From the sequence record X15714.1: a stretch of DNA of 276 nucleotides; one strand, written 5' to 3'. A program made the position numbers and the translations under genes. Source of the DNA: a phage. Under the pieces are notes generated by a model that ran no database searches, was not told the DNA's origin, and saw only the letters and a list, made by a program, of their open reading frames with translations. Below, piece after piece: positions 1 through 276 of the stretch. The number at the start of each line of letters is the position of its first letter. Within the stretch, counting starts at the first letter, position 1.

Positions 1-2
1 CT

Positions 3-149
3 GTTGATATTCATCCTCGTACTTCTGGTAATAATGTTTTTGTTGGTGTGATTTGTTCTAGCGCTAAATGGACCTCCGGTCGTGTGATTGGTACCATCGC
101 TACGACTCAGGTTATTCATGAATACCAAGTCCTTCAGCCGCTTAAATAA
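3..149 (+). CDS. G: Major spike protein G (Microviridae), C-terminal fragment; 5' end lies upstream of the window
   Basis: Frame 3 is open from position 3 to TAA at 147-149 and translates to [48 protein letters not shown]. From memory, phiX174 G ends ...[46 protein letters not shown]; the shared PRT-GNNV-VG core and identical LQPLK terminus indicate homology at roughly 50% identity. 30 of 48 sense codons end in T (my count), typical of microvirus coding sequence. The other two + frames hit stops early (TGA 5-7, TGA 49-51). Confidence 0.85.
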
Positions 150-176
150 AAGGCTGCCGCACTCCCGGTTAGATGC

Positions 177-194
177 CTGCCCAGTGTAGGGCAG
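177..194 (+). repeat. Hairpin A: 6-bp perfect stem (CTGCCC / GGGCAG) with 6-nt loop AGTGTA
   Basis: Read directly: 177-182 CTGCCC pairs with 189-194 GGGCAG, five of six pairs G:C. It would form in the single-stranded viral (+) DNA and in the mRNA. Confidence 0.65.
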
Positions 195-206
195 AACTAG
201 GAACGT

Positions 207-227
207 GGAAGGCGTTAGCCGCCTTCC
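207..227 (+). repeat. Hairpin B: 8-bp perfect stem (GGAAGGCG / CGCCTTCC) with 5-nt loop TTAGC; candidate origin stem-loop I
   Basis: Read directly: 207-214 GGAAGGCG pairs with 220-227 CGCCTTCC. It is followed by CTCCTGCTAAGCC, not a T-run, so it is not a canonical intrinsic terminator. A CTG lies 4 nt 3' of the stem. Confidence 0.7.
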
Positions 228-230
228 CTC

Positions 231-233
231 CTG
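231..233 (+). other. CTG trinucleotide; candidate primase initiation site on the viral-strand template
   Basis: DnaG primase initiates opposite the T of a template 5'-CTG-3'. This CTG sits just 3' of hairpin B. A primer started opposite T232 would read 5'-AGGAGGGAAGGCGGCUAACGCCUUCC-3' and copy hairpin B. As I recall it, the G4 origin primer begins pppAGUAGGG..., which is similar. CTG is a common trinucleotide, so position alone is weak evidence. Confidence 0.35.
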
Positions 234-244
234 CTAAGCCCAAA

Positions 245-250
245 AAGGAG
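245..250 (+). promoter_or_regulatory. Shine-Dalgarno sequence (AAGGAG) for gene H
   Basis: AAGGAG at 245-250 lies 8 nt upstream of the ATG at 259-261, a canonical spacing for an enterobacterial ribosome-binding site. Confidence 0.6.
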
Positions 251-258
251 TTACAGCG

Positions 259-276
259 ATGTTAGGTGCCGTTGTT
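259..276 (+). CDS. H: DNA pilot / minor spike protein H, N-terminal fragment (first 6 codons; continues beyond the window)
   Basis: ATG at 259 with an upstream SD; translates to MLGAVV. H follows G in all phiX174-like microviruses, and phiX174 H begins MFGAIAGG (from memory), so the M-x-G-A-[IV] start is consistent. Six codons give no statistical support on their own. Confidence 0.55.

Follow-up and report, generated by a model that had tools for sequence, protein, structure and literature searches.

In phiX174, priming of the complementary strand depends on the PriA primosome and takes place at a site within F/G. For St-1, phiK and alpha3, Sims, Capon and Dressler reportedly located the primase-dependent origins in the G/H spacer region in 1979. 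The spacer between genes G and H measures 8 nt in phiX174 and 10 nt in G4, compared to 134-136 nt in records of the alpha3 clade. At the G4 origin (G4ori), primase and SSB suffice for priming, which is rifampicin-resistant and takes place without PriA or DnaB; three stem-loops are followed on their 3' side by a 5'-CTG-3', synthesis begins at its T, and the primer can be as long as 28 nt (PMC6783573). In the published G4 model, the stem-loops exclude SSB and position two primase molecules (PMC6783573). The G4 genome record (NC_001420.2) carries the annotations 'RNA primer of replication' at 3970-3997 and 'origin of compl. strand synthesis' at 3998. A passage of PMC13037366, citing Sims, Capon and Dressler 1979, describes the replication origins of St-1 and alpha3 as having a hairpin I with GCGTTAGC.

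The window, which is the whole 276-nt stretch of record X15714.1, is on sequence grounds the viral (+) strand of coliphage alpha3 (Microviridae, Bullavirinae, Alphatrevirus), running from the 3' end of gene G to codon 6 of gene H. In the multiple alignment, its aligned bases are identical to positions 4811-5112 of alpha3 NC_001330.1 (276/276, no substitutions), and the sole difference is one 26-nt gap. Taken together, we consider it about 90% probable that the window represents the alpha3 G–oric–H region and that its spacer serves as a priming site for DnaG with SSB, in the manner of G4. A megablast search of 50,697 phage records returned matches to alpha3-clade microviruses only, with alpha3 first and St-1 and phiK also among the best, and neither phiX174 nor G4 among the best matches. 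The preliminary description had read the stretch as the G–H junction of a microvirus that is phiX174-like but diverged from phiX174, and had preferred the alpha3/phiK/St-1 clade; both readings held, as the G end, the H start and the ribosome-binding site were all recovered. It had left to a search whether this was a known isolate or a new one, and against the phage records the answer is a known one, alpha3.

The BLAST identities, taken at face value, might suggest a new species of the alpha3 clade, the reading that the preliminary description had tied to 70-90% nucleotide identity, because they amount to 91.4% for alpha3 and to 93-94% for St-1 and phiK, the latter over parts of the window only. 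However, the 91.4% is due wholly to the single 26-nt gap. Over the 149 nt of gene G, the window is identical to alpha3 (149/149), whereas St-1 differs by 9 substitutions (140/149 identical), phiK by 11, and ID32 and WA13 by 52 each (97/149). With 0/276 substitutions against alpha3 and clear differences from its relatives within G, the window is therefore assigned to alpha3 and not to a new clade member; the new-species reading has next to no probability left, and is already refuted for the bases in hand. The order of gene G, a long intergenic region and gene H, together with a spike protein of the Phage_G family, is that of alpha3, and every alpha3 feature checked on the 276 nt was found. The coding features of the window are as follows.

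3..149, + strand: 3' end of gene G (major spike protein), the last 48 codons plus the TAA stop at 147-149; identified by translation, Pfam, a PDB match and nucleotide identity to alpha3.
245..250, + strand: ribosome-binding site AAGGAG of gene H, 8 nt before the H start; corresponds, with identical sequence, to the regulatory feature at 194-199 of alpha3 M25640.1.
259..276, + strand: start of gene H (minor spike / DNA pilot protein), the first six codons, MLGAVV; aligned with the annotated H starts of alpha3, ID32 and WA13.

The gene G fragment occupies frame 3, which is open over 3-146 and encodes 48 residues. It matches the Pfam family Phage_G (PF02306) at profile positions 129-175 of 175, with a score of 32.5 bits against a cut-off of 25, and is 100% identical to residues 140-187 of the alpha3 spike protein structure (PDB 1M06, chain G; E = 6.5e-28); the protein-level check proposed for the G end thus came out positive on both counts. 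Identity at the protein level is 100% to alpha3, 94% to St-1, 92% to phiK, 56% to ID32, 47% to phiX174 and 46% to G4. Residues D2, P5, R6, G9, N10, V12 and G15 and the terminal LQPLK are invariant among these six phages. This agrees with the preliminary description, in which a PRT-GNNV-VG core and the LQPLK end were noted as shared with phiX174 G while about half of the residues differed. Compared to the window, the G–H junction of phiX174 has the same gene order and ends gene G with the same LQPLK, but is joined by its 8-nt spacer, and the origin model described below finds no match over the complete phiX174 genome.

Within the G coding sequence, a 21-nt direct repeat (81% identical) is seen at window positions 46-66 and 82-102, encoding GVICSSA and RVIGTIA, respectively; it is identical in alpha3 and is probably due to chance. 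The inverted repeats I1 and I2 and the direct repeat D1 are imperfect, lie within or across coding sequence and have no other support, and were likewise taken as chance. The remaining open reading frames, of 24-33 codons on either strand, are also without support. An exact-product look-up of the 48-residue G fragment and of a 30-residue open reading frame across the deletion junction found neither on record.

At the other end of the window, the ATG at 259 opens MLGAVV, which is the annotated start of alpha3 H, so that six H codons are covered; the downstream frame had been described as beginning like H. Over the ribosome-binding site and H start (window 242-276), ID32 and WA13 are identical to the window at 33 of 35 aligned positions, and St-1 and phiK at 19-20 of 35. 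The pattern is the opposite in gene G, where St-1 is the closer (140/149) and ID32 the more distant (97/149). Judging from these alignments, the origin seems to lie at a recombination boundary between G-type and H-type lineages.

The spacer between the two genes spans 109 nt in the window (150-258) and contains no credible open reading frame. It is long, as the preliminary description had pointed out, far exceeding the corresponding spacers of phiX174 and G4, and at the same time 25-27 nt shorter than that of every alpha3-clade relative. Its use as a clade marker had led to the right clade; its role as a primase-dependent origin of complementary-strand synthesis had gone unrecognised, and the 26-nt deletion had been missed. 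The features assigned to this region are listed below.

150..241, + strand: G4-type DnaG primase-dependent origin of complementary-strand synthesis (oric); from a covariance model and alignment with the G4 F/G origin.
152..194, + strand: stem-loop III, a long-range stem of 154-158 (within GGCTGCC, 152-158) with 190-194 (GGCAG); from covariation and predicted folds.
194..195, + strand: deletion junction, with ACCGAGCCGTACGGAGATACCCGATA (26 nt in alpha3) absent between G194 and A195; from alignments.
205-232, + strand: predicted primer template; from position-for-position homology with G4 3970-3997 and 3998.
207..227, + strand: hairpin I, an 8-bp stem of GGAAGGCG (207-214) and CGCCTTCC (220-227) with the loop TTAGC; a perfect inverted repeat (I3), present in the minimum free energy (MFE) and centroid folds and backed by covariation.
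212-219, + strand: the GCGTTAGC 'mini-hairpin' motif, inside hairpin I; from sequence and PMC13037366.
231-233, + strand: CTG start triplet; from homology with the annotated G4 start.
236-240, + strand: conserved AAGCC box; from alignment.

A sensitive search with the spacer also matched an unannotated stretch of G4-like phages, which proved to be their F/G intergenic region. The alpha3 G/H spacer aligns along its full length with the G4 F/G intergenic region, and since that region carries the annotated primer RNA and origin, the spacer is regarded as a homologue of the G4 oric. A covariance model was built from 16 natural origins, with the window left out. It matches the window end to end at 150-241, with a score of 92.3 bits and an E value of about 3e-27, compared to 150-155 bits for the natural alpha3-clade origins (153 for alpha3 itself), 118 for G4 and 110.9 for a plasmid copy. 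Exactly one site is found per alpha3-clade or G4 genome, always on the viral strand. Within the origin, ID32 and WA13 are identical to the window at 89/91 and 89/92 positions, respectively, against 97/149 in the G coding part. As far as these comparisons can tell, the origin is under selection as a DNA element and is far better conserved than the adjoining gene G.

The G4 oric (NC_001420.2, 3891-4006) shares with the family of the window the order of elements, namely stem III, middle block, hairpin I, CTG and AAGCC; compensatory changes preserve stems I and III, and priming in G4 needs only primase according to the literature. The two differ in that the G4 origin sits between F and G and that of alpha3 between G and H, and about 25% of their positions are different. 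Moreover, G4 retains the middle block as stem-loop II (-6.3 kcal/mol), which the window lacks. Compared to its own natural counterpart, the alpha3 origin at 4960-5077 of NC_001330.1, the window has the same bases, the same flanking genes, hairpin I with GCGTTAGC, the CTG box and the upper part of stem III, but is without 26 of the 118 nt.

A third context is provided by the Escherichia coli plasmid pRHB29-C22_2 (CP057337.1, 1082-1201, minus strand), which the model matches over its full length. Its stem III and CTGCTAAGCC box are nearly identical to those of alpha3; the hairpin I part differs and contains GCGAAGC, and the middle block (ACCTGGCCGAACAGAGATACCCG) is kept, unlike in the window. 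The plasmid is a 9.6-kb double-stranded molecule with 14 annotated genes, all of them on the other strand from the origin copy, which is placed in a 1.7-kb stretch free of genes. It has a twin in record CP057350.1, the two being the only matches among 72,556 plasmid records. This copy is probably a plasmid G4-type single-strand initiation signal. The module is thus found in three settings, namely G/H in the alpha3 clade, F/G in the G4-like phages and a plasmid stretch free of genes, and its occurrence between different genes and apart from any gene indicates that it travels as an autonomous DNA element.

Full 118-nt G/H origins were also found in three uncultivated alpha3-clade microviruses from metagenomes, IMGVR_UViG_3300045988_036090 (6143 nt), IMGVR_UViG_3300000293_000023 (6142 nt) and SKEJ01012116.1 (2398 nt), which could extend the alignment of the origin element.

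The position of the spacer between the high-copy gene G and the low-copy gene H, with a strong GC hairpin just before the H ribosome-binding site, could also point to a role mainly at the RNA level, as a terminator, an mRNA stabiliser or an attenuator that lowers the expression of H relative to G, in place of a replication origin. Yet a promoter and terminator scan of the window found neither, with no T-run terminator present, and the Rfam covariance models gave no match on either strand at E values up to 1. The same module in G4-like phages lies between F and G, in the plasmid it runs in a gene-free region opposite to the genes, and in the G4 copy the primer has been mapped. We consider an RNA role in place of the origin very improbable; the spacer may have a secondary RNA role alongside it. 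The priming origin remains our reading of the spacer.

Hairpin I is present in the window with its 8-bp GC-rich stem and GCGNNAGC-type loop on the viral strand, its arms are perfectly complementary, and across the family two of its pairs have changed on both sides. The CTG triplet and the AAGCC box downstream do not vary among the 19 aligned sequences. Primer synthesis is predicted to begin opposite T232, giving the sequence 5'-AGGAGGGAAGGCGGCUAACGCCUUCCAC. Stem III is a long-range helix with 100% of cells paired over the 19 sequences, in which C:G is replaced by T:A in five and G:C by A:T in two. In the window, five of the seven pairs of this GGCYRCC / GGYRG-A-CC stem are present. The CC that would pair with G152 and G153 falls in the deletion; G153 might instead pair with C197 across a 2-nt bulge. 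Overall, 98.6% of cells in the family structure are paired and four pairs have changed on both sides, against 34-57% paired in controls with slid partners.

A local hairpin of 177-182 with 189-194 is mutually exclusive with the long-range stem III, the two having the 3' arm GGGCAG in common. The single-sequence MFE fold picks the local hairpin; however, under the same substitutions it is kept through G·T pairs only, and the compensatory changes in the alignment support the long-range stem III over it. A further MFE arrangement, in which GGCT/AGCC and CGGT/ACCG pairings enclose the local hairpin, was rejected because it would put a C·A mismatch into the St-1-type sequences.

That primase acts at the alpha3 origin we infer from the literature on G4, St-1, phiK and alpha3. 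Under the established G4 model, the single-stranded circle would enter the cell and be coated by SSB except at stable hairpins, and DnaG primase, with neither helicase nor primosome, would recognise the structured SSB-free region. DnaG would then synthesise an RNA primer that copies hairpin I, beginning opposite the T of the 5'-CTG-3' immediately 3' of this hairpin, and DNA polymerase III would extend the primer into the double-stranded replicative form. The CTG at 231-233 would serve as the start signal in the window, with a template running from about position 232 back to 205. The genes, the origin and the priming mechanism have all long been known, and the element itself is thus an already known one.

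The only unusual trait of the window is the deletion, and its spacer is properly labelled as an internally deleted alpha3 origin and should not be called a normal G4-type one. Among the features of a G4-type origin, hairpin I, the CTG box and the strand are present, stem III is there in part, and the middle block and the overall length are not. The oric is 92 nt long, against 118 nt in natural alpha3-clade relatives, and the deleted bases correspond to positions 46-71 of the 118-nt core in alpha3; the boundary is ambiguous by one A, which gives a microhomology of 1 nt. The deletion removes a bulged A and both C's at the closing end of stem III, as well as the block TACGGAGATACCCG, the part that folds as stem-loop II in G4. 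Kept are hairpin I, the start triplet and the five stem III pairs. Stem III now lies about 12 nt from hairpin I, compared to 35 nt in the full-length origin, and the match to the family model drops by 61 bits, from 153 in alpha3 to 92. Under the published G4 model of SSB and primase, such a shift of stem III towards hairpin I should have an effect.

The region that is missing is near-invariant in the natural alpha3-clade sequences. In all 15 of these the origin core has a length of exactly 118 nt, and in G4, ID52 and the plasmid it measures 115-120 nt; a core of 115-120 nt and the middle block (TACGGAGATACYCG) are common to the 18 natural sequences, whereas the window has a 92-nt core without the block. 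The 26 missing columns are at least as conserved as the remainder, the majority fraction being 0.979 and 0.970, respectively. The lost block folds as stem-loop II in G4 and ID52 (CGGAGA/TCTCCG; -6.3 and -4.3 kcal/mol, respectively). In the alpha3-clade phages and the plasmid it has no stable fold, the centroid being open and no better than shuffles. The primary sequence TACGGAGATACYCG is common to all three lineages, the alpha3 clade, the G4-like phages and the plasmid; because it is shared by all of them and yet has no fold in the alpha3 clade and the plasmid, the block looks to be conserved as a sequence or a fixed-length spacer, and not as a hairpin. The three-hairpin G4 model may therefore not carry over exactly to the alpha3 clade.

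The deletion was found in none of the other records searched. All three alpha3 records (X60322/NC_001330, DQ085810.2 and M25640.1) include the 26 nt, and the 27 alpha3-clade records hold no instance of the loss. Comparable deletions are likewise absent from 365 G4-like records, of which 338 are ID11 genomes grown on E. coli C, and all of which show at least 90% gapped identity over the 116-nt G4 origin. The junction 25-mer had no exact match in any of the contig collections (viral, genome and metagenome), and a megablast search of 5,426 complete E. coli genomes was equally negative. A 2025 preprint on generative phage design likewise offered no relevant link. Gapped patterns that accept the short or the long spacing recovered the full spacing only, in 12 viral contigs and one metagenome contig, and gave no matches in bacterial contigs with one genome per species.

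The deletion comes with zero substitutions elsewhere, has 1 nt of microhomology and was not seen a second time, a pattern that agrees with an artefact or an engineered deletion no less than with a real allele. If it is an artefact, the gap would have arisen in sequencing, assembly, data entry or deliberate editing of an ordinary alpha3 record, and the real origin would be full length. This accords with the identity of all other bases to alpha3 and the presence of the 26 nt in the three alpha3 records, with a junction that occurs in no collection searched and the lack of any gene product of the window on record, and with the loss of a block that is near-invariant in nature at a junction of only 1 nt of microhomology. 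Nothing speaks directly against it; the gap is, however, clean with both flanks intact, and the ends of the window match no obvious restriction sites that would suggest a mis-joined fragment. We give this explanation nearly an even chance. As restriction-fragment ends, the window ends were rejected because no obvious site is present in the alpha3 flanks.

The alternative is a real deletion allele of alpha3, natural or from the laboratory, that still replicates, either because the short origin is sufficient or through a compensating priming route. The deletion leaves the primer start, hairpin I and the greater part of stem III intact, and the origin still scores 92 bits against the family model; in addition, the lost block has no stable fold of its own in the alpha3 clade, so that only two stem III pairs are lost and no hairpin is destroyed. 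However, both the length and the sequence of the block are fixed in all natural relatives and in the 338 experimentally evolved ID11 genomes, which argues for strong selection against such a loss. We regard a real allele as only slightly less likely than an artefact, and a viable circulating lineage as unlikely. Since the start triplet is retained along with hairpin I and the greater part of stem III, weakened and not abolished priming would be expected, and our best guess, based on the conservation and on G4 origin mutagenesis work, is that the shortened origin primes less efficiently without failing completely. As a second guess, the deletion arose in the laboratory or at the level of the record, and does not represent a natural allele in circulation.

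The stretch is a textbook region of a well-studied phage, and the value of this finding lies mainly in a correct annotation: the long G/H spacer that marks the alpha3 clade is a relocated G4-type primase origin and not filler. As an artefact, the deletion would point to an error in the record. That a replicating alpha3 lineage truly carries a 92-nt origin appears unlikely; if it did, the central block and the 35-nt spacing between stem III and hairpin I would be dispensable for primase recognition, or their loss would be offset by another priming route. The minimal primase entry site would then be smaller, contrary to what the strict conservation in about 390 phage records implies. Should the deletion exist in a viable phage, it would offer a ready-made test of which parts of an SSB/primase origin are needed, the middle block especially.
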